NCBI GenBank assembly: GCA_050287605.1
Contig: JBNKCG010000026.1
Span: forward strand, 76,123-140,122
Length of the DNA: 64,000 nt
Direction of reading: 5' to 3'
Source: Gammaproteobacteria bacterium
GTDB taxonomy: Bacteria; Pseudomonadota; Gammaproteobacteria; QQUJ01
Under the pieces are notes generated by a model that saw only the letters and a program-made list of their open reading frames with translations, was not told where the DNA came from and ran no database searches. The first letter of the stretch is position 1, and each line of letters starts with the position of its first letter. The translations under genes and the position numbers were made by a program. Below are positions 13,385 to 31,035 of the stretch, piece by piece.

Positions 13385-14797
13385 ATGAACCGAACCACGG
13401 TATCACTGGTGTTGCTGGGGGCAATGCTGTTCGCCCTCGGCCTCGCCTGGCTGTTCAACGGTCAGGGGGTGGTCCGCAACGATCACGCCCGGCACATCCA
13501 CATCCCGGATCCGCTGCTCATACCGCTGCAGGTGCGCGCCGCCTACAACGGCGAGCGTATCTTCTTCCAGTACCGCTGGCCGTCGCAGCGGCCCGGCATC
13601 CACAACGACGTCTACAAATACGAAGGCGGCAAGTGGGTGAAGTACGGTGAATCGCAGCCCGGCCCGCAGGCGCACGTATTCCTCGAGGACCGGGTGGCCA
13701 TGATGGTCGACGACGGACATGTCCCCGAATTCGGTCACTACGGAGGTTACGTCGCCATCGGCAGCGGCCTGGACACCTTCACGCAGGCGGCTGAATCGCC
13801 GCAGGTGAAGGCCCACGACTACTTGGGCAAGGTCATGGGGCAGGCTGTGGTCACCAAGTACTTACCGCAAACCCGCCAGCGTCCGGAGGACTGGACCACG
13901 GTGGTCGACGAGCAGCGCCTGACGGCGCTGCGCAAGGCCGGGTACTTCCTCGATCTCTGGCACTGGCGCGCCCACCGCTCGAACGCGCTCGGCTACTCCG
14001 ACGATCAGAACATCGCGGAGCTGCGCGGCGGCGATCCGGGCAAAAACGGCTGGTCGACCAACTGGGACAAGGAGAAGAACCAGCCCAAGTACATGTTCGA
14101 TCCGCAGCGCACCGGCCGCTTCGCCAACAGCTGGGACGATCTGAGCAGCGGGCGCGTGGGGCAGGACGACTACTACTACCTGTCGGACGAGACCAAGGTG
14201 CCATTCGATCCCAACCACGCCTGGAAGGAGGGTGACGTCTTGCCGCTGCGGGTGTTGCGACCCTACGAAGGGTCGATGGCCGACATCCGCACCGTCGGCC
14301 GCGGCCGCTGGCGGGACGGGTACTGGGAAGTCACGCTGTCGCGCCTCATGGATACCGGCGACCCGCTGCACGACAAATCGTTCGAGGAGGGGCACGTCTA
14401 CAACCTCGCGCTCGCCGTGCATCGCAACGCCACCGGGCAGCGCTGGCACTACGTCTCCCTGCCGCTGACCATCGGCCTGGGTCTCGACGGCGACTTCCGC
14501 GCCGAACGTTTCACCGGCGACCAACCGCCATGGAGCCAGAACTGGCATACGGTGAAACTGTTCTACCCCGGCCAGGTCAACTGGCCCCTGCTCACCAGCA
14601 ACCGGCATCCCGGCAAACCGATGATCGACCGCGGCATCCCGGTCCGGCACTACCACAAGGAAGAGCAGCTCGCCCGCTACGGTATCGAAGTGGAATTCCT
14701 TCCCGAGATACAGCGGCAGTGGCGCATGACCCTGGTCACCGGGGTGCTCCTATTTGCCGGCATCGGCTTCGGCCTGCTCCGTCTGCAAACTCGCTAA
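13385..14797 (+). CDS. Ethylbenzene-dehydrogenase-gamma-like (EB_dh / DOMON-like heme b) protein, membrane-anchored at both ends
   Basis: LQVRAAYNGERIFFQYRW, EDRVAMM, DLWHWRAHRS, WEVTLSRLMDTG, YNLALAVH pattern; N- and C-terminal hydrophobic helices; strong RBS AAGGAGGGG. Confidence 0.75.
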   Translation: MNRTTVSLVLLGAMLFALGLAWLFNGQGVVRNDHARHIHIPDPLLIPLQVRAAYNGERIFFQYRWPSQRPGIHNDVYKYEGGKWVKYGESQPGPQAHVFLEDRVAMMVDDGHVPEFGHYGGYVAIGSGLDTFTQAAESPQVKAHDYLGKVMGQAVVTKYLPQTRQRPEDWTTVVDEQRLTALRKAGYFLDLWHWRAHRSNALGYSDDQNIAELRGGDPGKNGWSTNWDKEKNQPKYMFDPQRTGRFANSWDDLSSGRVGQDDYYYLSDETKVPFDPNHAWKEGDVLPLRVLRPYEGSMADIRTVGRGRWRDGYWEVTLSRLMDTGDPLHDKSFEEGHVYNLALAVHRNATGQRWHYVSLPLTIGLGLDGDFRAERFTGDQPPWSQNWHTVKLFYPGQVNWPLLTSNRHPGKPMIDRGIPVRHYHKEEQLARYGIEVEFLPEIQRQWRMTLVTGVLLFAGIGFGLLRLQTR

Positions 14798-14812
14798 CCG
14801 GAGGATTACGAC

Positions 14813-15427
14813 ATGGCACCGATTCATCACATCATGGCGCACTTCCCGATCGCGCTACTGAGTCTGGCTTTTCTTCTGATCCTGCTGCGTTCCCTGAACG
14901 TCGGTGATCTGGGCCGCCGCTTGGAATCCGCAGTCCTGATGTACCTTCTCGCACTGGGCATCGCCGGCGGCATCGCGGCCCTTATCACCGGTTTGCTCAT
15001 CTGGCCGCTGGATGCCACGCTGTCCTCGACTATGGGGCGCAACAAACTGCTGATGGCGACCTGGACGCTGTCCGTCTGGTCGCTCATCCTGCTACTTCGG
15101 TGGCGTGTAGGCGAGGCGATCTGGGCGGGGCAAAGCCGCTTCCTGCTACTCGGTTTAGGCGTGTTCGGCGCCATTCTCTTGGCCACAACCGGCACCCTGG
15201 GCGGCCACCTGCTGGGCTCGCCATCCCGCTTCTCGGGACTGCTGCACCAGTTCGGTTGGAGCGTCTACCAAACCTACTACGTGCCCACCTGGGTGCTGTG
15301 GATCATGATCGCAGCAAGCGGATCCGGGGTCGTCGCCGGGATGCTGGCCGGCGCAAACCGTGGTGTAGCGGTCCCAACTGCTGCGCGGAGCACGCTCGTG
15401 ACGCCCGAGGAACCCGCCGCGACGTAA
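14813..15427 (+). CDS. DUF2231-like membrane protein
   Basis: N-terminal HHIMAHFPIALL and TGTLGGHLL motifs; several TM helices; RBS GGAGGA. Confidence 0.65.
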   Translation: MAPIHHIMAHFPIALLSLAFLLILLRSLNVGDLGRRLESAVLMYLLALGIAGGIAALITGLLIWPLDATLSSTMGRNKLLMATWTLSVWSLILLLRWRVGEAIWAGQSRFLLLGLGVFGAILLATTGTLGGHLLGSPSRFSGLLHQFGWSVYQTYYVPTWVLWIMIAASGSGVVAGMLAGANRGVAVPTAARSTLVTPEEPAAT

Positions 15428-15770
15428 GCGACGGCGCGGCACCCGTCGCAGCCGCCGTTCGCAACCCGTCGATATCGTCCTGTTCCGGGAGGGCGGCAGA
15501 CAGCCACCCTCCCGGGACCCGTACCGAACGACGTGCGGGAGCACGCCGGCTGAGCGAATTCCCACCCCTGAAACCGCAGGACCGCTTCTTCCTCGGAACA
15601 CCGCCCTCGTGAACACTATGCACAGAATGGCCACAACGCCCGATAAAGCCCTTATGGGTAGAAACTGGCCAGCCCGCCAACACCCGTCTAGGCTTGGGCC
15701 ATCGCGTCGCCTGCACAAAACCAAATTCAACGCGCCGATACGTTATCCACGTCACTGAGGAGGACGATCC

Positions 15771-16748
15771 ATGAAAAAGCTCTACACCGCCGCTGCGGCG
15801 GTCGCGCTGTTGGCAGCCGCCGGCACCACCCAGGCCTTCGAACCCAGCAAACCCGAATGCATCGCTCCCGCCAATCCCGGCGGCGGGTGGGACTTCACCT
15901 GCCGCCAGTTCGGCAAAGTGGCGTTCGACCTGAAACAGACCCCCGGCCCGCTCCAGGTCACCAACAAAGCGGGCGGTGGAGGAGGCGTCGCTTTCGCGGA
16001 GGTGGTGAGCAAGCGCAACGCCGACAACGATCTGATCGTGGCGGCATCCACCGCCACCACCACCCGCCTCGCGCAGGGTTTGTATGCCGGCTTCAATGCC
16101 GATCAGGTGCGCTGGCTGGGTGCGCTGGGCGCCGACTACGGTGTCATTGCGGTCGCCAAGAACAGCCCCTACAACACGCTGGGCGAGCTAATGGCCGCCG
16201 TTCGCTCCGATCCCCGCTCCATCGGCTTCGCCGGCGGCAGCGCGGTAGGCGGCTGGGATCACCTCAAGGTACTGATCACGGCGCGAGCCGCGGGCATCCA
16301 GGACGTGCGCCAGATCAAGTACGTCGCCTTCCAGGGCGGCGGCGAGGCGGTGACCCAACTGGTGGGCGGCCACGTCAAGGCCTTCTCCGGTGACGTCTCC
16401 GAAGCACTGGGCTTCATGGTGTCGGGCGATCTGCGGGTCCTCGCGATACTCTCGCCCGAACGGCTTCCCGGACCGCTGGCCAACATCCCCACCGCCAGGG
16501 AGCAGGGCATCGACGCGCTGGGCGCCAACTGGCGCGGTTTCTACGCGCCGGGCGGCACCTCCGACGACGCCTACAACTACTGGTCGCAGATGATCCAAAC
16601 GGTCTACGCCTCTCAAGAGTGGAAGCAGGCGATGACCGACAACGGCCTGATGCCGTTCCGCATGACCGGTCCTCAGCTGACCGAGTTCGTGACCAAGCAG
16701 GTGGCGGACATCAAGGCGATCTCCAAGGATATCGGCTTGATCAAATGA
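15771..16748 (+). CDS. tctC: Tripartite tricarboxylate transporter substrate-binding protein
   Basis: Signal peptide; PANPGGGWDFTCR, GGGGG, QGGGEAVTQLVGGHV. Confidence 0.92.
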   Translation: MKKLYTAAAAVALLAAAGTTQAFEPSKPECIAPANPGGGWDFTCRQFGKVAFDLKQTPGPLQVTNKAGGGGGVAFAEVVSKRNADNDLIVAASTATTTRLAQGLYAGFNADQVRWLGALGADYGVIAVAKNSPYNTLGELMAAVRSDPRSIGFAGGSAVGGWDHLKVLITARAAGIQDVRQIKYVAFQGGGEAVTQLVGGHVKAFSGDVSEALGFMVSGDLRVLAILSPERLPGPLANIPTAREQGIDALGANWRGFYAPGGTSDDAYNYWSQMIQTVYASQEWKQAMTDNGLMPFRMTGPQLTEFVTKQVADIKAISKDIGLIK

Positions 16749-17182
16749 GGGTCTCGGACCGCCTGCTCGGTGCGGTCGGCCTGACTTTGGGTGTGGCGCT
16801 CGTGTGGGGCGCCACACTCATCGAGGTCGGCTTCATCGTCGACCCGCTGGGACCGAAGAGCTTCCCCACCATCATCGGCGGCGTGCTGATCGTCAGCTCG
16901 CTGTTCGTCCTGCTGATGCCCGACCCGGAACCGGAATGGCCCCGGCTGACGCGCATGCTGGAGGTGGTGGGCGCTATCGCGGTAATGGTCGGCTACGCGC
17001 TGGCGCTGGAGCCCGTCGGGTTCGTGCTCTCCACCGCCGTGGCGGCCGCGCTGCTGAGCTGGCGGCTGGGCAGTACGCTGCTGATGGCTGCCACTACCGG
17101 TATCGGCATTGCGGCGGGCATCTACGTCCTGTTCCATCTCGTGCTCGGCCTGTCGCTGGCGAAGGGGCCGTGGGGGTTTTGA
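16745..17182 (+). CDS. tctB: Tripartite tricarboxylate transporter small membrane subunit
   Basis: ATGA overlap with the tctC stop; DPLGPKSFP motif; about 4 TM helices. Confidence 0.88.
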   Translation: MRVSDRLLGAVGLTLGVALVWGATLIEVGFIVDPLGPKSFPTIIGGVLIVSSLFVLLMPDPEPEWPRLTRMLEVVGAIAVMVGYALALEPVGFVLSTAVAAALLSWRLGSTLLMAATTGIGIAAGIYVLFHLVLGLSLAKGPWGF

Positions 17183-17185
17183 GCC

Positions 17186-18712
17186 ATGGACATCTTTAGT
17201 TCACTCGCGCAGGGCTTCGACGTCGCCCTGACTTGGCAGAACATCGGGCTGGCCTTCCTCGGCTGCCTGCTGGGCACCATCATCGGGGCCATGCCGGGGC
17301 TGGGTCCCTCCAACGGCGTGGCGATACTCATCCCGCTGGCGTTCACCCTTGGCCTACCGGCGACGCCGGCGCTGATCCTGCTCACCAGCGTCTACTTCGG
17401 CGCCATGTACGGCGGTCGCATCTCCAGCATTCTGATCAACATCCCCGGCGACGAGCCGGCATTGATGTCGACCCTGGACGGCTACCCCATGGCCAAACAG
17501 GGGCGCGCCGGCGAAGCGCTGGCGCTCTCCGGCCTCGCCTCCTTCGTGGGTAGCTTTCTCGCCACCATCGGCGTGGCGCTGTTCGCCCCGCTACTGGTGC
17601 AGCTCGCGCTGCTGTTCGGACCGGCGGAGTACTTCGCTCTCTTCACTCTGGCCTTCGCCACCATCGGCGGGGTCTCCAGCGCCAATCAGGCGAAGTCGGC
17701 CATGGCCGCCGCGCTGGGGCTGGGGATCGCCATGATTGGCATCGACGGCTCCACCGGCGCCCAGCGCTACACCTTCGGTCAGATCCACCTGCTGGACGGC
17801 ATCGATTTCCTGGTGGCCATCGTCGGGCTGTTCGCCATCTCCGAGGTGTTCCTGTTCATGGAGCACAAGGGCGAGGGCTCGCCGGTGGGCAACAAGCTGG
17901 ATCGGGTCACCATCCCCTGGAACACCCTCAAGCGCTGCATCGGTTCCATGCTGCGCGGCAGCGGGATCGGCTTCGTGGCCGGCGTGCTGCCGGGCGCCGG
18001 CGCCTCGCTGGGCAGTTTCGTCGCCTACACCGTGGAGAAACGCGTCAGCGACCGGGAGCAGACCTTTGGCAAGGGCGACCCGCGTGGACTGGCCGCCCCC
18101 GAAGCCGGCAACAACGCCTCGGCGGGTGGCGCGCTGATCCCCATGCTCTCCCTGGGCGTGCCCGGTTCGGGCACCACCGCGGTCCTGCTCGCCATGCTGC
18201 TGACCCTAAACATCACCCCCGGGCCGCTGCTGTTCACGCAGAATCCGGACGTGGTGTGGGGTCTGATCGCCGCGCTGTTCATCGCCAACATCATGCTGCT
18301 GCTGATGAACATGCCGCTGGTGGGGCTGTTCGTCCGCGTGCTCCAGGTGCCGTCGCGAGTACTGATACCGACGGTGGCGATGGTGAGCTTCGTCGGCATC
18401 TACGGCATTTCGGGCAGCGCCTTCGATCTGTTGGTGATGATCGGTTTCGGCGTGGTGGGTTATCTGCTGCGCAAATTGGATGTACCGCTGGTGCCCGTCA
18501 TCCTCGGGACCCTGCTGGGCAACCAGATGGAGGACAACCTGCGCCGGGCGCTCACCATCTCCGACGGCGACTGGTTTGCCCTGTGGAGCAGTCCCCTGGC
18601 GCTGGGGCTGTGGGCCTTCGCCATCGCCGGCTTCGTGGCGCCCATGATCCTGGGCCACGTGGTGCGGCGCAAGATGAGCGTCGGGGTGCGCGAGATGAGC
18701 GACTCCGATTAG
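17186..18712 (+). CDS. tctA: Tripartite tricarboxylate transporter large permease
   Basis: GTIIGAMPGLGP, YGGRISSILINIPG, GLAAPEAGNNA, LGVPGSGTTAVLL. Confidence 0.95.
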   Translation: MDIFSSLAQGFDVALTWQNIGLAFLGCLLGTIIGAMPGLGPSNGVAILIPLAFTLGLPATPALILLTSVYFGAMYGGRISSILINIPGDEPALMSTLDGYPMAKQGRAGEALALSGLASFVGSFLATIGVALFAPLLVQLALLFGPAEYFALFTLAFATIGGVSSANQAKSAMAAALGLGIAMIGIDGSTGAQRYTFGQIHLLDGIDFLVAIVGLFAISEVFLFMEHKGEGSPVGNKLDRVTIPWNTLKRCIGSMLRGSGIGFVAGVLPGAGASLGSFVAYTVEKRVSDREQTFGKGDPRGLAAPEAGNNASAGGALIPMLSLGVPGSGTTAVLLAMLLTLNITPGPLLFTQNPDVVWGLIAALFIANIMLLLMNMPLVGLFVRVLQVPSRVLIPTVAMVSFVGIYGISGSAFDLLVMIGFGVVGYLLRKLDVPLVPVILGTLLGNQMEDNLRRALTISDGDWFALWSSPLALGLWAFAIAGFVAPMILGHVVRRKMSVGVREMSDSD

Positions 18713-21794: not shown

Positions 21795-22142
21795 GGGACA
21801 TGCGCTTTCTTGATCGGCCTGGAATCGTGCCTCCGGCACCGCCCTGGACGGAAACGAAACGCCCTACCTCCCTGGCAGGTCGATGCGCACGCGGCCTGGC
21901 CGGCGCGGCGCCCAGGAATGAGTATAGAAGCTATCTCAGCATCCCTGCCTGCCGACCCGACGCTCCAATCCCTTGCATGCGTCGACGTCGGGCTCGACAC
22001 CGAGCAGGCCCCTGCAGATATTGACGACTTCGATCCCATGCGCCAGTGTTAGAACCAAGCGAAGAGATCGAGGCCCGGTTTCATCACAGTCCGTCGTGAT
22101 GAGAACACTGTGCGGATCAGCAGAGCCCCGGAGGAAAATACT

Positions 22143-22505
22143 GTGACGACAAAGCACGTGTGGTGGACGCTGACAGCGGCCATCGTTGCACTCTACGCCA
22201 GCACCCCGATGGCCGCACCACCGATGCCGGAGGTTGCCCGAAAAGCGGCCTGCACCTTGTGCCACAAGGTGGACAAGAAACTGATCGGCCCCGCATTCGC
22301 TTGGATTTCCGACAAGTACAAAAACGATCGCGCAGCGGGTAAAACCGCCATCATCAACCAGATCATCAACGGCGGCACCGGCAAGTGGACCCGCTACACC
22401 GGCGGCGTTCTCATGCCCTCTTACGGCGAGACCACGACCCCGGCACAGCGGAACGAGCTGGCGGACTTCATTCTCGGTCTCGATCCGGTCACTCCACCGG
22501 AGTAA
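22143..22505 (+). CDS. Monoheme class I cytochrome c (c551/c552-like)
   Basis: GTG start after GGAGGA; signal peptide; CTLCH, IGPAF, distal Met (LMPSY). Confidence 0.9.
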   Translation: MTTKHVWWTLTAAIVALYASTPMAAPPMPEVARKAACTLCHKVDKKLIGPAFAWISDKYKNDRAAGKTAIINQIINGGTGKWTRYTGGVLMPSYGETTTPAQRNELADFILGLDPVTPPE

Positions 22506-22786: not shown

Positions 22787-24445
22787 ATGTCCCCGATTTT
22801 CGCCCGCAACGCCTGGCGCCGGTTGGTCTTGTTGACCGGGCTTGCCTTAGTCGCCCCGCCCTCTTACGCCGCCGTTTCCGGCACGCCGGAACACGGGCCG
22901 CCGGCACACTCCTCGACCGCCAAACCCAGGAGCAACTCCACCGCCGACCATTCCCGGTTCGAGGAGTTGCAAGGCCCGTTCGCCAGCGGTCCCGAGGTCA
23001 CCAAAGCGTGTCTCTCCTGCCATACCGAGGCCGGCAAGCAGGTGATGAAGGATATCCACTGGACCTGGGAGTACACCCACCCCAAAACCGGCCAGAAGCT
23101 CGGTAAAAAACACTTGGTCAACACCTTCTGCACCAACGCGCGCGGCAACGAGGGCATGTGCGCGCAATGCCACGCGGGATACGGCTGGAAGGACGAAAGC
23201 TACGACTTCAGCCAGCAGGAGAATATCGACTGCGTGGTCTGCCACGATCGCACCGGCAGCTATTACAAAACGCCTACCACCAAGGGCAACGAGGCCTGCG
23301 CGGTAATGTTCGAAGGCCTGAAACCTATCGATCTGGCGCAGGTTGCCCAGCATGTGGGCGTCCCCGACCGTCAGGACTGCGGCGCCTGCCACTTCTTCGG
23401 CGGCGGCGGTGACGGCGTCAAACACGGCGATCTCGACTCGTCGCTGATCCACCCCGGCAAGCAACTCGACGTGCACATGAGCGAATCCGGCGCCGACTTT
23501 TTATGCACCGAGTGCCATCGCACCGTCTCCCACGAGATCGCCGGCAGTCGCTACGACATGCTGGCCCGTGACGAAACAGGCACCGGCAAGCCCGGCGAGC
23601 GCCGCCACGCTGCCAGCTGCGAATCTTGCCACGGCAACGTGCCACACCCGGGCGACGAGCTGACCGGCATCAAGCTCAACGATCACGTGGCGAAGGTGGC
23701 CTGCGAAACCTGCCACATCCCGACGTTCGCGCGCGGCGGGGTCGCCACCAAGGTCGATTGGGACTGGCGCACCGCAGGCCGTACGCGCGACGGAGCCGGC
23801 TTCTCGGAAGAGGGCTACGTGCAAGGCAACGGCGAGCATCGCCACACCTATCGATCCATCAAGGGCAGCTTCAAGTGGGATGAAAACGTGGTGCCGTACT
23901 ACGCCTGGTTCGACGGCGTGATGCACTACACCACCATCGACACCCGCTTCGATCCAGCCCAGGCGCCCATCGAGGTCAATCGCGTCAGCGGTTCGGCGGA
24001 CGACGCCAACGCACGCATCTGGCCCTTCAAGCGCATGCATACCATCCAGCCCTACGACAAGGGCAACAACACCCTGGTCTACATGCACTTGTGGGGCGAC
24101 GACAGCGACGCCTACTGGGGAAACTACGACTTCAACCGCGCCATCCAGCACGCCATGGCCGAGTTCAATCTGCCCTACAGCGGCGAGTACGGATTCATCG
24201 ACACCTACTCCTACTGGCCCATCAACCACATGGTGGCGCCCAAAGAGGACGCGTTGGGTTGCTCGGCGTGTCACGCCGCCGACAGCCGTCTGGCCGGTAT
24301 CAGCGGGATCTACCTGCCTGGACGCGACAGTCACAATCTACTCGACAAACTGGGCCTGCTAATGGTGTCCGGATCGCTGTTCGGCGTTTTCGGACACGCC
24401 TTTTTCCGATTCTGTTGTCGCAATAACAAAGGGGGGGATGCGTAA
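22787..24445 (+). CDS. otr: Octaheme c-type cytochrome, tetrathionate reductase (Otr) family
   Basis: Eight CxxCH motifs (CLSCH, CAQCH, CVVCH, CGACH, CTECH, CESCH, CETCH, CSACH); GKKHLVNTFC segment; HGDLDSSL; signal peptide; C-terminal TM helix. Confidence 0.9.
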   Translation: MSPIFARNAWRRLVLLTGLALVAPPSYAAVSGTPEHGPPAHSSTAKPRSNSTADHSRFEELQGPFASGPEVTKACLSCHTEAGKQVMKDIHWTWEYTHPKTGQKLGKKHLVNTFCTNARGNEGMCAQCHAGYGWKDESYDFSQQENIDCVVCHDRTGSYYKTPTTKGNEACAVMFEGLKPIDLAQVAQHVGVPDRQDCGACHFFGGGGDGVKHGDLDSSLIHPGKQLDVHMSESGADFLCTECHRTVSHEIAGSRYDMLARDETGTGKPGERRHAASCESCHGNVPHPGDELTGIKLNDHVAKVACETCHIPTFARGGVATKVDWDWRTAGRTRDGAGFSEEGYVQGNGEHRHTYRSIKGSFKWDENVVPYYAWFDGVMHYTTIDTRFDPAQAPIEVNRVSGSADDANARIWPFKRMHTIQPYDKGNNTLVYMHLWGDDSDAYWGNYDFNRAIQHAMAEFNLPYSGEYGFIDTYSYWPINHMVAPKEDALGCSACHAADSRLAGISGIYLPGRDSHNLLDKLGLLMVSGSLFGVFGHAFFRFCCRNNKGGDA

Positions 24446-25095
24446 TGGCGATCCGTACCGTGATGGTTTACAAGCGTTTCGAGCGCATCTGGCACTGGTG
24501 CCAGATGGCGCTGATCATGACACTGCTGTTCAGCGGTTTCGCGGTGCGCGGCATCCACTCGCTGCTGGACTTCCGCACCGCGGTGGTCGTCCACACAGTA
24601 GCCGCGATCACCCTGATCGTCATCTGGCTGTTCGCCACCTTCTGGCTGTTCACCACCGGCGACTGGCGCCACTATCTGCCCAAGAGAGAGGGATTGATCG
24701 CCGTGGCGCGTCACTACGCATGGGGAATCTTCCGCGGCGAAGAACACCCCTACCGCAAGCTCTTCTGGCGCAAACACAATCCGTTGCAGTCGTTGACCTA
24801 CATGCTGGTGAAAGTGGTGCTGTTTCCCGCCATCTGGGTCACCGGCATCCCCTACCTACTCTACGGGCTATGGCACGAAACCACCGGCCGCGGCTGGATC
24901 GAGCCCATCGCTTTCGTCCACGTGGGCGCCGCCTACGCCATCCTCGCCTTCGTCATCGTGCACGTCTACCTGCTCACCACCGGGCACTCGTTCGTCGATC
25001 ACGTCAAACCCATGGTGACCGGTTACGACGAAGTGGATCTTACCGAAGCGGAAGAGGCCTACCTGACGGAGACACGCATCGTGCCGATGAAATAG
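24445..25095 (+). CDS. Membrane di-heme cytochrome b (PhsC / Ni-hydrogenase cytochrome b-like)
   Basis: FERIWHW, VVVHTV, KHNPLQSLTY, AFVHV, VIVHVYL: four candidate heme His residues; TAATG overlap with the otr stop. Confidence 0.88.
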   Translation: MAIRTVMVYKRFERIWHWCQMALIMTLLFSGFAVRGIHSLLDFRTAVVVHTVAAITLIVIWLFATFWLFTTGDWRHYLPKREGLIAVARHYAWGIFRGEEHPYRKLFWRKHNPLQSLTYMLVKVVLFPAIWVTGIPYLLYGLWHETTGRGWIEPIAFVHVGAAYAILAFVIVHVYLLTTGHSFVDHVKPMVTGYDEVDLTEAEEAYLTETRIVPMK

Positions 25096-25257: not shown

Positions 25258-26715
25258 ATGGCACGTATCGTCATCCTCGGCGCGGGGATTTCCGGGCACA
25301 CCGTCGCCCGCTACTTGGGCAAGTGGATCGGGAAGCAGCACCAGGTCATTGTGGTCTCGCCCAAACCCACCTGGAACTGGATTCCCTCCAACATCTGGGT
25401 CGGCGTCGGGGAGATGACCGAGCAGCAGGTCACCTTCGCGCTCGAACCCGTCTACAAGAAGATCAACGTCGCCTTCCACCAGGCCAAGGCGGTCTCCATT
25501 CATCCCGACGGCGACGCCGAACACGCCAAACCCTACGTCACGGTCGAGTACACCGGCCAGGGCAAGGAGGGTCAGACCGCCGCCGTGGAATACGACTACC
25601 TGGTCAACGCCACCGGTCCCAAACTCAATTTCGGCGCCACGCCGGGGCTGGGACCGGAGAACGGCTATTCGATGTCGGTGTGCACACCCGCGCACGCGCT
25701 GGAGGCCAACGCCCAGTTGCAGAAGAACATCGAGGCCATGAAGGCCGGCGAGCAGCGCACCTTCGTCGTCGGAACCGGCCACGGGATGTGCACCTGCCAG
25801 GGCGCGGCCTTCGAGTACATCTACAACATCGACCACGCCATCCGCGCCGCGGGGGTACGCGACCGCGCGCGCCTCATCTGGATCAGCAACGAATACGAGC
25901 TGGGCGACTTCGGCATGGGCGGCGTCCACATCACCCGCGGCGGCTACATCACCAACGGCAAGGTATTCGCCGAATCGCTGATGGTGGAGCGCGGCGTGGA
26001 ATGGATCACCCGCGCCCATGTCAGCAAGGTCGAGCCGGGCAAGATCCACTACGAACAGCTCGACGGCACCCAGCACGAACTGGAGTTCGATTTCTCCATG
26101 CTCATCCCGCCCTTTTCGGGGGTCGGCATCAAGGCCTTCGACAACGCCGGGGGCGACATCACCGATCAGCTGTTCGCGCCCAACGGGTTCATGAAGGTCG
26201 ACGCCGACTACAACCCCAAGCCCTACGAGCAGTGGAGCAAAGCGGACTGGCCCAAGACCTACCAGACGCCCAAGTACAAAAACATCTTTGCCGTCGGAAT
26301 CGCCTTCGCGCCGCCGCATCCCATCAGCAAGGTGATGAAGAGCCCCGGCGGAACGCAGATCAGCCCCACCCCCCCGCGCACCGGCATGCCCTCGGCCACC
26401 ATCGGCAAGGCGGTGGCAAGCAGCATCCGCGACATGCTGGAAGGCAAGGCCGAACCGACCCACACCGCCTCCATGGCCGAGATGGGCGCCGCCTGCGTGG
26501 CCTCTACCGGCATGGACTTCTTCAAAGGTACCGCCGCGACCATGACGGTGTTCCCGGTGGTCCCCGACTACGAGACCTACCCCGAGTACGGCCGCGACAT
26601 GAACCTCACCTTTGGCGAGATCGGGCTGGCCGGGCACTGGATGAAGTTCATCCTGCACCACGTCTTCATCTACCAGGCGAAGCTGCGCCCAGGCTGGTCC
26701 GTCCTTCCGGACTGA
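25258..26715 (+). CDS. sqr: Sulfide:quinone oxidoreductase
   Basis: GAGISG FAD motif; SVCTPAHA, CTCQGAAFEY and GAACVAS cysteine positions equivalent to the SQR Cys triad; VGIAFAPP; PRTGMPS. Confidence 0.85.
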   Translation: MARIVILGAGISGHTVARYLGKWIGKQHQVIVVSPKPTWNWIPSNIWVGVGEMTEQQVTFALEPVYKKINVAFHQAKAVSIHPDGDAEHAKPYVTVEYTGQGKEGQTAAVEYDYLVNATGPKLNFGATPGLGPENGYSMSVCTPAHALEANAQLQKNIEAMKAGEQRTFVVGTGHGMCTCQGAAFEYIYNIDHAIRAAGVRDRARLIWISNEYELGDFGMGGVHITRGGYITNGKVFAESLMVERGVEWITRAHVSKVEPGKIHYEQLDGTQHELEFDFSMLIPPFSGVGIKAFDNAGGDITDQLFAPNGFMKVDADYNPKPYEQWSKADWPKTYQTPKYKNIFAVGIAFAPPHPISKVMKSPGGTQISPTPPRTGMPSATIGKAVASSIRDMLEGKAEPTHTASMAEMGAACVASTGMDFFKGTAATMTVFPVVPDYETYPEYGRDMNLTFGEIGLAGHWMKFILHHVFIYQAKLRPGWSVLPD

Positions 26716-26752
26716 TCGATCGCGCACCCGCACCGCATTCGAGGAGGCACCC

Positions 26753-26923
26753 ATGGCAGACGCGACCAACAAAGAACCCTACCAACAGGCCTATTACCCG
26801 CCGGTGCCCACCGGCTTCACACGCCACATGCGCCAATCGGTGGTCTGGCAGTTCATCCGCTTTTGGATCATCAACTACAAAATCTTCAAGCTGTTGACCA
26901 AATCCCACCGGCAAAAGGACTGA
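26753..26923 (+). CDS. 56-aa small protein cotranscribed with sqr (MADATNKEPYQQAYYPPVPTGFTRHMRQSVVWQFIRFWIINYKIFKLLTKSHRQKD)
   Basis: Manual translation; GAGGAGG RBS just upstream; fills the gap between the sqr stop and the terminator; below the ORF-track size cutoff. Confidence 0.8.
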   Translation: MADATNKEPYQQAYYPPVPTGFTRHMRQSVVWQFIRFWIINYKIFKLLTKSHRQKD

Positions 26924-26937
26924 TCCAGGTCGAACGC

Positions 26938-26964
26938 AAACGGGGCCGCAACGGCCCCGTTTTT
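26938..26964 (+). terminator. Rho-independent terminator (probably bidirectional) between the sqr unit and putR
   Basis: AAA-CGGGGCCG-CAA-CGGCCCCG-TTTTT. Confidence 0.88.
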
Positions 26965-27001
26965 GTTGGGTGGTGCAACGCGAGCGTCCCCGCCGCCAGC
27001 C

Positions 27002-27478
27002 TCACACCTGCGCCACACCCCGGTCTCTGACGCTCTCCATGGAAACGTAGGTGGAGGTGGCGGCCACATGGGGCAAGCAGGAGATGCCCTCGCTCAACAC
27101 CCGGCGGTACTCGCGGATATCCTGGGTGCGCACCTTTACCAGATAGTCGAACCCGCCCGCGATCATGTGGCACTCCTCCACTTCGGGGATCTCGCGCACC
27201 GCCTTGTTGAACGCCTTGAGCGCCTGCTCGCGGGTGTCGGACAGGCGCACCTCGATGAAGGCCACGTGCTCCAGACCGAGCCGGCTGGCCGACAGCTCCA
27301 CACGATACCCCGTGATCACTCCCTCCGCTTCCAGACGCCGCACCCGGGCCGCGACGGGTGTCTTGGAGAGACCGACCTTCTGGCCCAGTTCAACCATCGG
27401 AATGCGCGCGTTACGCAGCAGTTCGTTGAGGATGGAACGGTCGATCCGGTCCAGCTTGGGGGGGATGGCAGCACTCAT
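27002..27478 (-). CDS. putR: Lrp/AsnC-family regulator PutR
   Basis: LDRIDRSILNELLRNARI, VGLSKTPVAARVRRLE, ECHMIAGGFDYLVKV; divergent from putA. Confidence 0.85.
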   Translation of the reverse strand: MSAAIPPKLDRIDRSILNELLRNARIPMVELGQKVGLSKTPVAARVRRLEAEGVITGYRVELSASRLGLEHVAFIEVRLSDTREQALKAFNKAVREIPEVEECHMIAGGFDYLVKVRTQDIREYRRVLSEGISCLPHVAATSTYVSMESVRDRGVAQV

Positions 27479-27600: not shown

Positions 27601-30600
27601 ATGATTGACCTCGACCCCCGGTGGGACCGCAACAAACGGCGTGATGAGGCGGAACTGCTCCGCTCGCTGATCGCAACCGCCGCGCTCGACGATGCCGCCC
27701 GCGAGGCCATCGTCACCCATGCCGCCGGGCTGGTTGAACGCATCCGCCACGATGCGCGCCCCGGTCTGATGGACGTCTTCCTCGCCGAATACGGGCTCTC
27801 CACCGACGAGGGCGTCGCCCTCATGTGCCTCGCCGAGGCGCTACTCCGGGTGCCCGACGCAGCCACTATCGACGCCCTCATCGAAGACAAGATCGCTCCT
27901 TCCGACTGGGGCAAACACCTGGGCCGCTCCTCCTCGCCCCTGGTCAACGCCTCCACCTGGGGCTTGATGCTGACCGGCAAGGTGCTCGAAGAGAGCGGAC
28001 CGGGCGTGGCCGGTACGTTGCGCTCAATGATCCGCCGCCTCGGCGAGCCGGTGGTGCGCACCGCGGTGGGCACCGCGATGCGCGAGATGGGTCGCCAGTT
28101 CGTGCTCGGCGAGAACATAGGCGCAGCCATGAAACGGGCGCGTGCCAAAGAGGCCCAGGGGTTCACCTACTCCTACGACATGCTGGGCGAGGCGGCGATG
28201 ACCGCGACCGACGCCGAGCGCTACCAACAGGCCTACGCCGACGCCATTGCCGCTATCGCCGACGCCTGCACTGCGGACGAGATCGCCGCCAATCCCGGCA
28301 TCTCGGTCAAACTGTCGGCCCTGCACCCGCGCTACGAAGTGGCTAAGACTGAGCGCGTCATCAAGGAGCTGGTGCCGGTTTTGACGGCGCTCGCCCGACA
28401 GGCCGCGCGCGCCGGCATGGGCCTCAACGTCGACGCCGAGGAGGCCGACCGGCTGGGGCTCTCCCTCAAGGTCATCGAGGCGGTACTCGCCGATCCGCAA
28501 CTGGCGGGTTGGGAGGGTTTCGGCGTGGTGGTACAGGCCTACGGCCGGCGCGCCGGCGAAGTGATCGACGGGCTGTACGAGATGGCACAGCGCAACGACC
28601 GGCGCCTCATGGTGCGGCTGGTGAAGGGCGCCTATTGGGACACTGAGGTGAAACGCGCGCAGGTGGAAGGGTTGAGCGACTTTCCCGTCTTCACGCGCAA
28701 GGCGGCGAGCGACGTCAGTTACCTCGCCCACGCCCGCACGCTGCTGGGTCTTACCGACCGCATCTATCCGCAGTTCGCCACCCACAACGCCCACACCGTG
28801 GCGGCAATCCTGCACATGGCACGCGACATCGATCACGGCGCCTACGAATTCCAGCGCCTGCACGGCATGGGCGAAGCGCTGCACGACATCGTGCACAACG
28901 AGACGCAGGCGCGCTGCCGCATCTACGCGCCGGTGGGCGCCCACCGCGACCTGCTCGCCTACCTGGTGCGGCGGCTGCTGGAAAACGGCGCCAACTCCTC
29001 GTTCGTCAACCGCATCGTCGACGAGAGCGTACCCGCGCGCGACGTCGCCGCCTGCCCATTCGCGACGCTCGCCGCCCCACCCGGCCCCACCGAACCCACC
29101 CTGCAGACGGGCCCCCAGCTGTTCGCCCCGCAGCGCGCCAACTCGCGCGGTTTCGACCTGGCCGACGTCACCGTACTGACGCGCATCGCAACCGAACGTC
29201 CAACGCCGACGCCCTGGCGCGTCGAGCCGATACTCGCCGGGACGGTGGAGGGAATGGCGCCCGAGACGGCCTACAACCCGGCCACCGGTGCGCCCATCGG
29301 CGAGGTGGTCTGCGCCACTGCGCGCGATATCGACACGGCCCTGTCCGCCGCACGCTGCTGGGAGGCGCCGGTGAGCGAGCGGGCCGAGATCCTGCGCCGC
29401 GCTGCCGGTCTCTACGAAGAGAACTTCGGCGAACTCTTCGCCCTGCTCGCCACCGAGGCGGGCAAAACCCTGCGCGACGCCGTCGCGGAACTGCGCGAGG
29501 CGGTGGATTTCCTGCACTACTACGCCGCCGAGGCCGCGCACCTCGACGACCCGGCGCGCGGCCTGTTTACCTGCATCAGTCCGTGGAACTTCCCGCTCGC
29601 CATCTTCACCGGCCAGATCGCCGCGGCCCTGGCCGCCGGTAACGGCGTGCTCGCCAAACCGGCCGAAACCACGCCGGCCATCGCCGCCTGGGGTGTGCGG
29701 CTGCTGCACCAGGCCGGGGTGCCGCGCACCGCGTTGCAACTGCTGACCGGGCCTGGCCGCGTCATCGGCACCGCGCTCACGGCCGACCAGCGCGTCAACG
29801 GCGTCGCCTTCACCGGCTCCACCGCCACCGCACGTGCCATCCAGCGCGCCATGGCCGAGCATCTCGAACCGGGCACACCGTTCATCGCTGAAACCGGCGG
29901 ACTCAACGCCATGATCGTCGACAGCACGGCGCTGCCGGAGCAGGCGGTGCGTGACATAGTCGCCTCGGCCTTCCAATCCGCCGGCCAACGCTGTTCGGCG
30001 CTGCGCTGCCTCTACGTGCAGGAGGATATCGCGCCGACCATTCGCGAGATGCTGATCGGGGCCATGGATCAATTGGCCTTGGGCGATCCCTGGGAGATCG
30101 CCACCGACGTGGGCCCGGTCATCACGGCGGCCGCCCAGGCCGAGATTGCGAACTACGTGGAGCAGGCAGCCGCCCAAGGCCGGCTGATCCACCGACTGGA
30201 GCGCCCGCACACCGGCAACTTCGTGGCACCGGCGCTGATCGCGGTGGAGGGGATTGCCGACCTGGAGCGCGAGGTGTTCGGCCCCGTGCTGCATCTGGCC
30301 ACCTTCCGCGCCCGCGACATCGACCAAGTGATCGCGGCGGTGAATGCCACGGGCTACGGTCTCACCTTCGGTCTGCACACGCGCATCGACGACCGCGTCC
30401 AGACCATCGCCGACTCGGTGCACGCGGGCAACATCTACGCCAACCGCAACCAGATCGGCGCGGTAGTGGGCTCCCAGCCCTTCGGCGGCGAGGGGCTCTC
30501 CGGCACCGGCCCCAAGGCGGGCGGGCCACATTACCTGGCGCGTTTCACCCGCCGCACTGCCCCGCGCTACGAGGCGCAAGAGGATCGTCCCGCCGACATT

Positions 30601-31035
30601 CGGTCGGTCGTTACGGCGCTCGAGGCGGGTGCAAAAATCCGAAGCAAAACCCGCGCGCAACTGATGCCGGGGCCGACGGGCGAACTCAACCGCCTCAGCA
30701 CCGTGGCGCGGCCGCCGCTTCTCTGCCTCGGTCCCGGTGAAGCGACCGTACACGAGCAGCTCGTCGCCATCGAGGCACTGGGCGGCCGGGCGGTCGCAGT
30801 GAACGGGCGGTTACCGCCCGAGCAGCTTGCCACCCTCCCCGCCTTCGGCGCCGCGCTCTGGTGGGGCGACGAAGCGACAGGCCGCCAGTACGCGCAAGCC
30901 CTCGCCGCGCGGCAAGGTCCCATCGTCCCGTTGGTGACGGAGCGCCCGGACCCCGCGCATGCGCACTTCGAACGCCATTTGTGCGTCGACACCACGGCGG
31001 CGGGGGGGAACGCGAGTCTGTTGGCGGGGAAATGA
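27601..31035 (+). CDS. putA: Bifunctional proline dehydrogenase / P5C dehydrogenase PutA (no N-terminal RHH domain)
   Basis: GVALMCLAEALLRVPD, SYDMLGEAA, RLVKGAYWD, QFATHNAHT, RRLLENGANSSF, ISPWNFPLAIF, FQSAGQRCSA, PGPTGE, AAGGNASLL. Confidence 0.97.
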   Translation: MIDLDPRWDRNKRRDEAELLRSLIATAALDDAAREAIVTHAAGLVERIRHDARPGLMDVFLAEYGLSTDEGVALMCLAEALLRVPDAATIDALIEDKIAPSDWGKHLGRSSSPLVNASTWGLMLTGKVLEESGPGVAGTLRSMIRRLGEPVVRTAVGTAMREMGRQFVLGENIGAAMKRARAKEAQGFTYSYDMLGEAAMTATDAERYQQAYADAIAAIADACTADEIAANPGISVKLSALHPRYEVAKTERVIKELVPVLTALARQAARAGMGLNVDAEEADRLGLSLKVIEAVLADPQLAGWEGFGVVVQAYGRRAGEVIDGLYEMAQRNDRRLMVRLVKGAYWDTEVKRAQVEGLSDFPVFTRKAASDVSYLAHARTLLGLTDRIYPQFATHNAHTVAAILHMARDIDHGAYEFQRLHGMGEALHDIVHNETQARCRIYAPVGAHRDLLAYLVRRLLENGANSSFVNRIVDESVPARDVAACPFATLAAPPGPTEPTLQTGPQLFAPQRANSRGFDLADVTVLTRIATERPTPTPWRVEPILAGTVEGMAPETAYNPATGAPIGEVVCATARDIDTALSAARCWEAPVSERAEILRRAAGLYEENFGELFALLATEAGKTLRDAVAELREAVDFLHYYAAEAAHLDDPARGLFTCISPWNFPLAIFTGQIAAALAAGNGVLAKPAETTPAIAAWGVRLLHQAGVPRTALQLLTGPGRVIGTALTADQRVNGVAFTGSTATARAIQRAMAEHLEPGTPFIAETGGLNAMIVDSTALPEQAVRDIVASAFQSAGQRCSALRCLYVQEDIAPTIREMLIGAMDQLALGDPWEIATDVGPVITAAAQAEIANYVEQAAAQGRLIHRLERPHTGNFVAPALIAVEGIADLEREVFGPVLHLATFRARDIDQVIAAVNATGYGLTFGLHTRIDDRVQTIADSVHAGNIYANRNQIGAVVGSQPFGGEGLSGTGPKAGGPHYLARFTRRTAPRYEAQEDRPADIRSVVTALEAGAKIRSKTRAQLMPGPTGELNRLSTVARPPLLCLGPGEATVHEQLVAIEALGGRAVAVNGRLPPEQLATLPAFGAALWWGDEATGRQYAQALAARQGPIVPLVTERPDPAHAHFERHLCVDTTAAGGNASLLAGK

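Follow-up and report, generated by a model that had tools for sequence, protein, structure and literature searches.

Our goal was to understand whether a short open reading frame (ORF), directly behind a sulfide:quinone oxidoreductase (SQR) gene, is itself a gene and, if so, what its product might do for the enzyme. The locus is part of a 64,000-nucleotide stretch of gammaproteobacterial DNA, referred to below as the window. Note that, in the literature, SQRs are regarded as monotopic flavoproteins with a single subunit (PMC10892978). A universally linked partner would alter the way that type IV-like SQRs are expressed, purified, modelled, and annotated. The practical handle would be co-expression of both genes. 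Table 1 lists the features of the locus.

Table 1. The SQR gene, the small ORF, and their signals, in window positions.
Feature	Positions	Strand	Remarks
SQR gene, 485 aa	25258..26715	+	stop TGA 26713-26715
Shine-Dalgarno GAGGAGG	26741..26747	+	read directly; 5-nt spacer to ATG
Small ORF, 56 aa	26753..26923	+	ATG 26753, stop TGA 26921-26923
Small-protein residues 6-20 (N-K-E-P-Y-Q-Q-A-Y-Y-P-P-V-P-T)	26768..26812	+	predicted extended N-terminus
Small-protein residues 21-54, kinked cationic helix	26813..26914	+	predicted from AF2 and conservation
Intrinsic terminator: 11-bp stem, CAA loop, U-rich tail	26938..26967	+	RNA fold

The original prediction described a GAGGAGG ribosome binding site and an ORF filling the space between the sqr stop codon and a terminator. 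Both are present. The Shine-Dalgarno sequence is correctly placed, and the ORF begins 37 nucleotides after the sqr stop codon and ends 14 nucleotides before an RNA hairpin. The product of the small ORF is MADATNKEPYQQAYYPPVPTGFTRHMRQSVVWQFIRFWIINYKIFKLLTKSHRQKD. The hairpin itself (26938-26962) has a G+C-rich stem of 11 bp and is followed by a U-rich tract. RNA folding returned a free energy of -27.8 kcal/mol, a stability that was not matched in 200 shuffles (z = -3.75). Direct folding thus recovered a structure at which a consensus terminator scan made no call, because A-U pairs in the stem consume part of the T-run. We conclude that the hairpin is a terminator closing the unit of sqr and small ORF. 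From the other side, a gene encoding an Lrp/AsnC-family regulator (27002-27478, - strand) converges on this terminator, which may act in both directions. The regulator gene is divergent from an ORF of 1144 aa (27601-31035, + strand), labelled PutA by eye. Neither Lrp nor PutA was found at any of 80 genome loci with the sqr-small ORF pair.

The size of the small ORF is, alone, weak evidence for a gene, since chance ORFs of such size are common in GC-rich DNA. Indeed, the surrounding 9 kb contain 79 ORFs of 30 aa or more. Absence of the small ORF from the ORF track may simply result from a cut-off of 60 aa. Hence, it is comparative conservation, rather than size, that identifies the ORF as a gene. 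At least 132 clusters, formed at 90% identity, were recovered when 5.8 billion proteins were searched. Their members are 51-83 aa in length and match the window protein at 60-88% identity; none has a name other than the label hypothetical. With each species represented by a single genome, relatives were detected in at least 211 species. When 1.84 billion representative sequences were then searched with a profile, 266 clusters (50% identity; lengths of 40-115 aa throughout) emerged, and a profile built from distant members added 460 further clusters at 90% identity. Across the family, the median length is 54 aa, with an interquartile range of 52-56 aa. Note that many members are from NCBI genomes where the protein has no accession or name. 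Hence, the gene is often left unannotated, and catalogues of small proteins would gain a named family. Two long proteins deserve mention. P0394 (475 aa), considered as a long family member, was rejected; by sequence it is an unrelated enzyme, and a clustering artefact. P0522 (401 aa) sits in another 90%-identity cluster of small proteins.

The pattern of substitution is that of a protein-coding sequence. Identity at codon positions one, two, and three is 80, 87, and 49% respectively (46 core codons, 79 loci). At the same loci, pS is 0.73 versus a pN of 0.16, with a median dN/dS of 0.12, and the annotated +1 frame is the only one open in 100% of cases. In addition, 93% of 168 loci have a Shine-Dalgarno-like motif, of at least 4 nucleotides, 5' of the small ORF start. 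The prediction that the ORF encodes a genuine protein is, therefore, borne out by homologues, selection, an open frame, and translation signals. A chance ORF, or an untranslated conserved element such as a terminator-proximal spacer, has a negligible probability by comparison. While the abundance of random 56-aa ORFs might be cited in favour, divergence at third positions with amino acids kept, a stable length, and a profile able to find the family across phyla all argue the opposite. We regard this reading as effectively refuted by the selection measurements and locus counts. Judged on these comparisons, the small ORF is a member of a real, broadly conserved, unnamed protein family under strong purifying selection at the protein level.

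The family resembles nothing named in the resources searched. No Pfam or NCBIfam match was found for the small protein, and 45 members compared with Pfam, at E-values up to 10, gave none. Across all PDB chains, with the same E-value limit, the sole hit of a 45-member profile was LolA (E=1), which is irrelevant. Foldseek found no match for a model of the small protein. Likewise, we did not find a published description of the small ORF when searching for the neighbours of Alvin_2145, TrSqrD, and CT0117, or for an SQR small subunit; subscription journals were mostly outside that search.

The upstream gene encodes a predicted SQR, as judged from motif, fold, and cysteines. The protein starts MARIVILGAG and has an FAD Rossmann motif, MARIVILGAGISGH, at the N-terminus (Pyr_redox_2, E=1.3e-11), with no N-terminal signal peptide. 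The best sequence matches in the PDB are the type I SQRs 3hyv (E=3e-39) and 3sz0. Residues Cys142, Cys180, and Cys413 align to Cys124, Cys156, and Cys347 of A. aeolicus SQR, and the three catalytic-type cysteines are kept in 156-157 of 157 clade members. The core of the AF2 model is well predicted (mean pLDDT of 75 overall). Top Foldseek matches to the model are 3hyv and 3t31 (TM 0.73/0.82), and the YjlC-Ndh entry 9a63 is also among the fold matches. Homologues of the SQR are uniformly 484-489 aa in length.

The original prediction, of a generic SQR, was right about the enzyme and can be made more precise with respect to type. In type IV SQRs, Ala replaces Val, Leu, or Ile right before the third catalytic cysteine (PMC9666304). 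The equivalent pair, Ala412-Cys413, is found in 155 of the 157 clade members, and genera reported to carry sqrD (PMC3368242) harbour close homologues. Assignment to type VI (SqrF) was considered and rejected; the third cysteine is residue 413 here and residue 332 in TrSqrF (PMC9666304). Note that Thiocapsa has only SqrD and SqrF (PMC9666304, PMC10892978). A Thiocapsa roseopersicina homologue was found among our loci (L028) and, given the position of the third cysteine in SqrF, it is not SqrF. The SQR is most likely type IV (SqrD)-like, an assignment that draws on the Ala-Cys signature and on the genera in which close homologues occur.

The C-terminus of the SQR is unusually well conserved. Helix residues 456-470 have an entropy of 0.92, versus an average of 1.26 for the protein, and H460, W461, K463, F470, W480, and P484 are invariant in a clade otherwise down to 56% identical. 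In NDH-II, the sister flavoprotein family, the C-terminal amphipathic region is described as the most variable part of the protein (PMC13433803). In the AF2 model there is a single long C-terminal helix (452-474), with a pLDDT below 50 for residues 411-462, and the presence of only one such helix is a tentative prediction. Most SQR types have two C-terminal helices and only type VI has one (PMC9666304). Nine SQR positions discriminate loci with EPYQQAYYPP-type partners, and five of the nine are in the last 75 residues (binomial p ~0.007, not corrected for phylogeny). This clustering is suggestive only, since phylogeny confounds the comparison. Covariation between SQR and small protein (MI with APC, 158 pairs, Meff 51) is dominated by high-entropy positions and phylogenetic signal, and was uninformative; F464-Q11 and F464-Y14 are among the top 30 pairs, but are given no weight here.

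The original prediction held that the small ORF should recur downstream of homologous sqr genes. This is what we observed. Wherever a locus could be evaluated (168 of 168), the small ORF is directly downstream of a same-clade SQR orthologue, and the gap between the two has a median of 29 nucleotides; this final count was made with a family HMM cleaned of P0248, a sequence discussed below. At all 80 genome loci found via the small ORF, the gene directly 5' of it, in the same orientation, encodes an SQR orthologue (72-86% identical). More distant members behave identically, with nine of nine traced to contigs following a Pyr_redox_2 gene of 482-489 aa. The SQRs concerned are, where measured, 57-63% identical to that in the window, and some of these contigs belong to MAGs of Ignavibacteriaceae, Leptospiraceae, and Acidobacteria. 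For the reverse test, metagenomes were searched with two SQR-specific peptide motifs, yielding 80 loci with SQRs 55-78% identical to that in the window. The small ORF is directly downstream in 77 of 77, and the other three loci stop at a contig edge. No stand-alone copy of the small ORF was seen among the 168 loci.

The rest of the neighbourhood is not shared. In a census of neighbouring ORFs, the next most common family was present in, at most, 17 of approximately 90 loci. At one Ignavibacteriaceae locus (L088), genes on both sides are on the opposite strand. Hence, with no other widely common neighbour, sqr and the small ORF are a self-contained, co-oriented, two-gene cassette. The pair spans Gamma-, Beta-, and Zetaproteobacteria, as well as Ignavibacteriaceae, Leptospiraceae, and Acidobacteria. 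This invariance across phyla is strong comparative support for a dedicated accessory partner of the SQR, as was proposed for this locus. It also makes the small ORF a clean genomic marker for the SQR clade. The clade is widespread in sulfur- and iron-oxidising bacteria, organisms of importance for sulfide detoxification and sulfur cycling.

The clade has been tied to the intracellular sulfur globules of Chromatiaceae (PMC3368242). It is equally present in the iron oxidisers Gallionella, Sideroxydans, Mariprofundus, and Ghiorsea (among loci L021-L080). Given this, and the occurrence in Ignavibacteriaceae, Leptospiraceae, and Acidobacteria, the correlation with sulfur globules is not general. 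Three types of neighbour were also recorded. At approximately 12 Gallionellaceae-type loci (for example L052:7124-8731), an ORF resembling cytochrome bd oxidase subunit I adjoins the sqr-small ORF pair. This would fit with quinol made by SQR being reoxidised by a bd-type oxidase. At L084, a rhodanese gene (2004-2447) is directly 3' of the small ORF and, at L082, a SelU/rhodanese gene (644-1759) is near the pair. Such sulfurtransferase neighbours are occasional and not conserved.

Among the 266 representative clusters, there is no natural fusion of a full-length SQR to the small protein. One candidate, P0248 (114 aa), was considered as a fusion between the SQR C-terminus and the small ORF, and rejected as a pseudogene at L086 that says nothing about interaction. 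A decayed sqr remnant (L086:4692-5345 and L087:106-450) is beside a cydAB-ybgT-ybgE operon; in this remnant, the SQR C-terminus is fused, in frame, to a truncated small ORF. The YbgT_YccB gene is visible in locus L086.

What form does the small protein take? In an alignment of 273 sequences, P19, T20, T23, R27, W32, Q33, R36, F37, I40, N41, K43, M/I44, S51, and H52 are near-invariant. Residues 6-20 are invariant in the proteobacterial clade, to which the EPYQQAYYPP motif is confined; family-wide, only Pro19-Thr20 is kept. AF2 predicts coil for residues 1-20, a helix from 21 to 28, a kink, and a second helix from 30 to 54, with pLDDT values of 88-95 in the helices. Thus described, a Pro/Tyr-rich N-terminus, predicted to be extended, precedes a cationic helix of 25 residues. 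The original prediction was of aromatic/basic helical periodicity, and amphipathic character, in the C-terminal half. The helix withstands scrutiny (pLDDT ~90 for residues 30-54), but amphipathicity is only moderate (muH 0.33, mean H 0.40) and a plain aromatic/basic amphipathic helix is not the best description. Conserved residues recur along the helix with a period of 100 degrees (shuffle p=0.02), on a face approximately 113 degrees away from the hydrophobic one. The simplest reading of this pattern is that one face of the helix makes a specific protein contact while another, variable and hydrophobic, would meet lipid.

To judge from its composition, the helix is not a typical transmembrane segment, and it is not a signal peptide either. 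As a criterion for the former, we required a stretch of ~19 residues with a Kyte-Doolittle score of at least 1.6. The best 19-mer has a score of 1.05 in the window protein and a median of 1.16 across the family, in which only 8% of members reach 1.6. The helix is cationic and moderately hydrophobic and, furthermore, the invariant residues R36, N41, and K43 are inside it; this is the basis for our conclusion. There is no twin-arginine motif with a hydrophobic core: R27 is the only invariant arginine upstream, and R24 varies between R, L, and K. The original prediction listed several functions. A sulfur-product channel or carrier is unsupported, as no cysteine is conserved in the 273-sequence alignment. 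An extra membrane-interface element, or anchor, is the listed function most consistent with the anatomy of the protein.

We infer, from the coupling of the genes and from selection acting on the protein, that this SQR, a type of enzyme described as having one subunit, probably functions together with a small helical protein that has no name. On balance, we favour a permanent subunit, docked on the C-terminal membrane and quinone domain of the SQR. Binding would occur at the membrane interface, with a fixed stoichiometry between partner and SQR. The extended N-terminus of the partner, with the P-T motif and, in proteobacteria, EPYQQAYYPP, would run along the SQR surface. The invariant face of the helix (R27, Q33, R36, F37, I40, N41, and K43) would pack on the C-terminal helix and tail of the SQR. 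On the enzyme side, the contacts would come from the single C-terminal helix and the tail, with H460, W461, K463, F470, W480, and P484. The variable hydrophobic face, with many Lys and Arg residues, would touch lipid. Together, the two helices might form, or stabilise, the membrane-binding surface and the entry to the quinone pocket. In type I SQRs, the corresponding surface comes from two C-terminal helices within a single chain.

A paralogue bears on what such a partner does. The SQR encoded at L082:3501-5144 is 59% identical to that in the window, and two of the catalytic-type cysteines are replaced (C180 by Y, C413 by F). The small ORF is nevertheless kept, 30 nucleotides downstream. This suggests that the role of the partner is independent of cysteine chemistry, and argues for a structural function rather than a catalytic or regulatory one.

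We also put forward, as possible rather than probable, a stronger proposal. Type IV SQRs may be obligate two-component enzymes, in which the invariant helical face of the small protein and the single C-terminal helix of the SQR together build the quinone pocket and membrane-binding surface. If so, the flavoprotein alone should be inactive or mislocalised. The literature searched contained no report on the biochemistry or structure of a type IV SQR, and an obligate partner would explain why this type has resisted biochemical study. Partner-assisted quinone access, recently described for oxidoreductases that depend on helical membrane plugin (HMP) proteins, would then have evolved a second time, independently and in minimal form.

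The closest parallel is with those systems. In B. subtilis, Ndh docks via its C-terminal domain on the HMP partner YjlC, and a menaquinone pocket is predicted between one helix from each protein (PMC13433803). SQR genes are the commonest neighbours of HMP genes (PMC13433803). YjlC-Ndh, and the HMP partners of ForCE and HucSLM, share with the sqr cassette a monotopic flavoprotein with two dinucleotide-binding domains and a small helical partner encoded adjacently. In both cases, the docking site is, or is proposed to be, the C-terminal membrane and quinone domain of the enzyme; in HMP systems, a helix of the partner is predicted in the quinone pocket. As expected of an HMP gene, the small ORF is adjacent to, and co-oriented with, a gene for a quinone-linked oxidoreductase (168 of 168 loci). 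However, neither the sequence similarity nor the multi-helix size and fold of HMP proteins is evident (median 54 aa, one kinked helix). The phylogenetic ranges also differ. HMP proteins are enriched in Firmicutes and Crenarchaeota (PMC13433803), whereas the small ORF family is found in Proteobacteria, Ignavibacteriaceae, Leptospiraceae, and Acidobacteria. We propose, by analogy, that the small protein may work like an HMP-type partner; it is not a demonstrable member of the group.

Other systems are instructive for their differences. The type I SQRs of Aquifex aeolicus (3HYV) and Acidithiobacillus ferrooxidans (3T31) are single-chain monotopic enzymes. They have the same fold, FAD-binding motif, three cysteines, and C-terminal amphipathic region for membrane and quinone. 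Unlike the SQR in the window, each chain has two C-terminal amphipathic helices and there is no partner gene. The window SQR is ~55 aa longer, and a low-confidence prediction gives it one long C-terminal helix; its gene is invariably followed by the small ORF. CydX/YbgT proteins of cytochrome bd are ~40-55 aa, encoded at the operon end, easily missed in annotation, and needed for the complex. The likeness to the small ORF is that of a tiny protein encoded at the end of an enzyme operon. The difference is that CydX-type proteins are single-pass transmembrane helices on integral subunits, whereas the small ORF helix is too polar and its partner would be a monotopic flavoprotein. Finally, in Allochromatium vinosum, Alvin_1196 and Alvin_1197 are downstream of the type VI gene sqrF and have been suggested to mediate membrane attachment (PMC10892978). 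Compared by description only, these are unlike the small ORF; they are linked to type VI, missing from Thiocapsa bogorovii (PMC10892978), and not obligate.

The main rival to a permanent subunit is a transient factor for assembly, targeting, or insertion, which is not part of the mature enzyme. Such a protein might deliver FAD-loaded SQR to the correct membrane face, or fold the C-terminal domain. We consider this unlikely. Note that the genomic coupling fits equally well, since strict operon linkage is also expected for a dedicated chaperone. Furthermore, the SQR is without an N-terminal signal peptide while purple sulfur bacterial SQRs are predicted to face the periplasm (PMC11267869), and active SQR is reportedly difficult to obtain by heterologous expression (PMC9666304). 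Conversely, the family has neither a twin-arginine motif nor a hydrophobic, signal-like core, and the conserved helix face, alongside the invariant C-terminal helix of the SQR, points to a lasting and specific interface.

A further explanation is that the small ORF encodes an independent membrane-active or regulatory peptide, for instance one that tunes SQR activity or acts in sulfide stress, that is merely co-transcribed with sqr and forms no structural complex. A cationic helix, encoded behind its own Shine-Dalgarno sequence, would be compatible with this, and co-transcription alone is no proof of binding. Three observations make the idea improbable. First, pairing holds at 168 of 168 loci, across phyla, even where all other neighbours differ. 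Second, the small protein co-diverges with SQR and, when the latter is 57-63% identical, only the core signature is kept. Third, the small ORF persists beside the SQR paralogue missing two catalytic cysteines.

Membership of the HMP family itself is very improbable. By this account, the small protein would be a reduced and remote relative of YjlC, ForE, and HucM, oligomerising into a lipid- and quinone-filled scaffold to which SQR docks. Most HMP genes adjoin SQR genes, NDH-II docks via its C-terminal domain (PMC13433803), and the SQR model retrieves 9a63 as one of its fold matches. However, the profile comparisons with PDB and Pfam (both to E-values of 10), and Foldseek, returned no similarity to HMP proteins. 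Equally, a protein of 52-56 aa, with one kinked helix, is unlike the tetrameric multi-helix tube of YjlC and the 132-site HMP alignment (PMC13433803).

The original prediction also raised the possibility of a bridge, coupling SQR to an octahaem Otr and cytochrome b pair, and this has only the faintest chance of being correct. The sole point in favour is adjacency in the window, where otr (22787-24445) and the cytochrome b gene (24445-25095) are upstream on the same strand. Homologues of neither gene are present in the examined flanks of 160 loci (80 genome and 80 metagenome), and the bridge is already refuted as a general function.

The Otr region has features of its own. The two ORFs (22787-25095, + strand) encode an octahaem cytochrome of the tetrathionate reductase family (TIGR04315, E=3e-183) and, next, a PhsC-like cytochrome b561, the ATG of which overlaps the otr stop codon. 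The pair resembles a quinol-linked Otr module. Immediately 5' of otr is an ORF for a mono-haem cytochrome c of 131 aa (22110-22505, + strand), with a CTLCH motif and a match to PF00034. Further upstream (13385-18712, + strand), a protein with an EB_dh (ethylbenzene-dehydrogenase-type haem) domain is encoded with a DUF2231 membrane protein, followed by the tricarboxylate transporter genes TctC and TctA.
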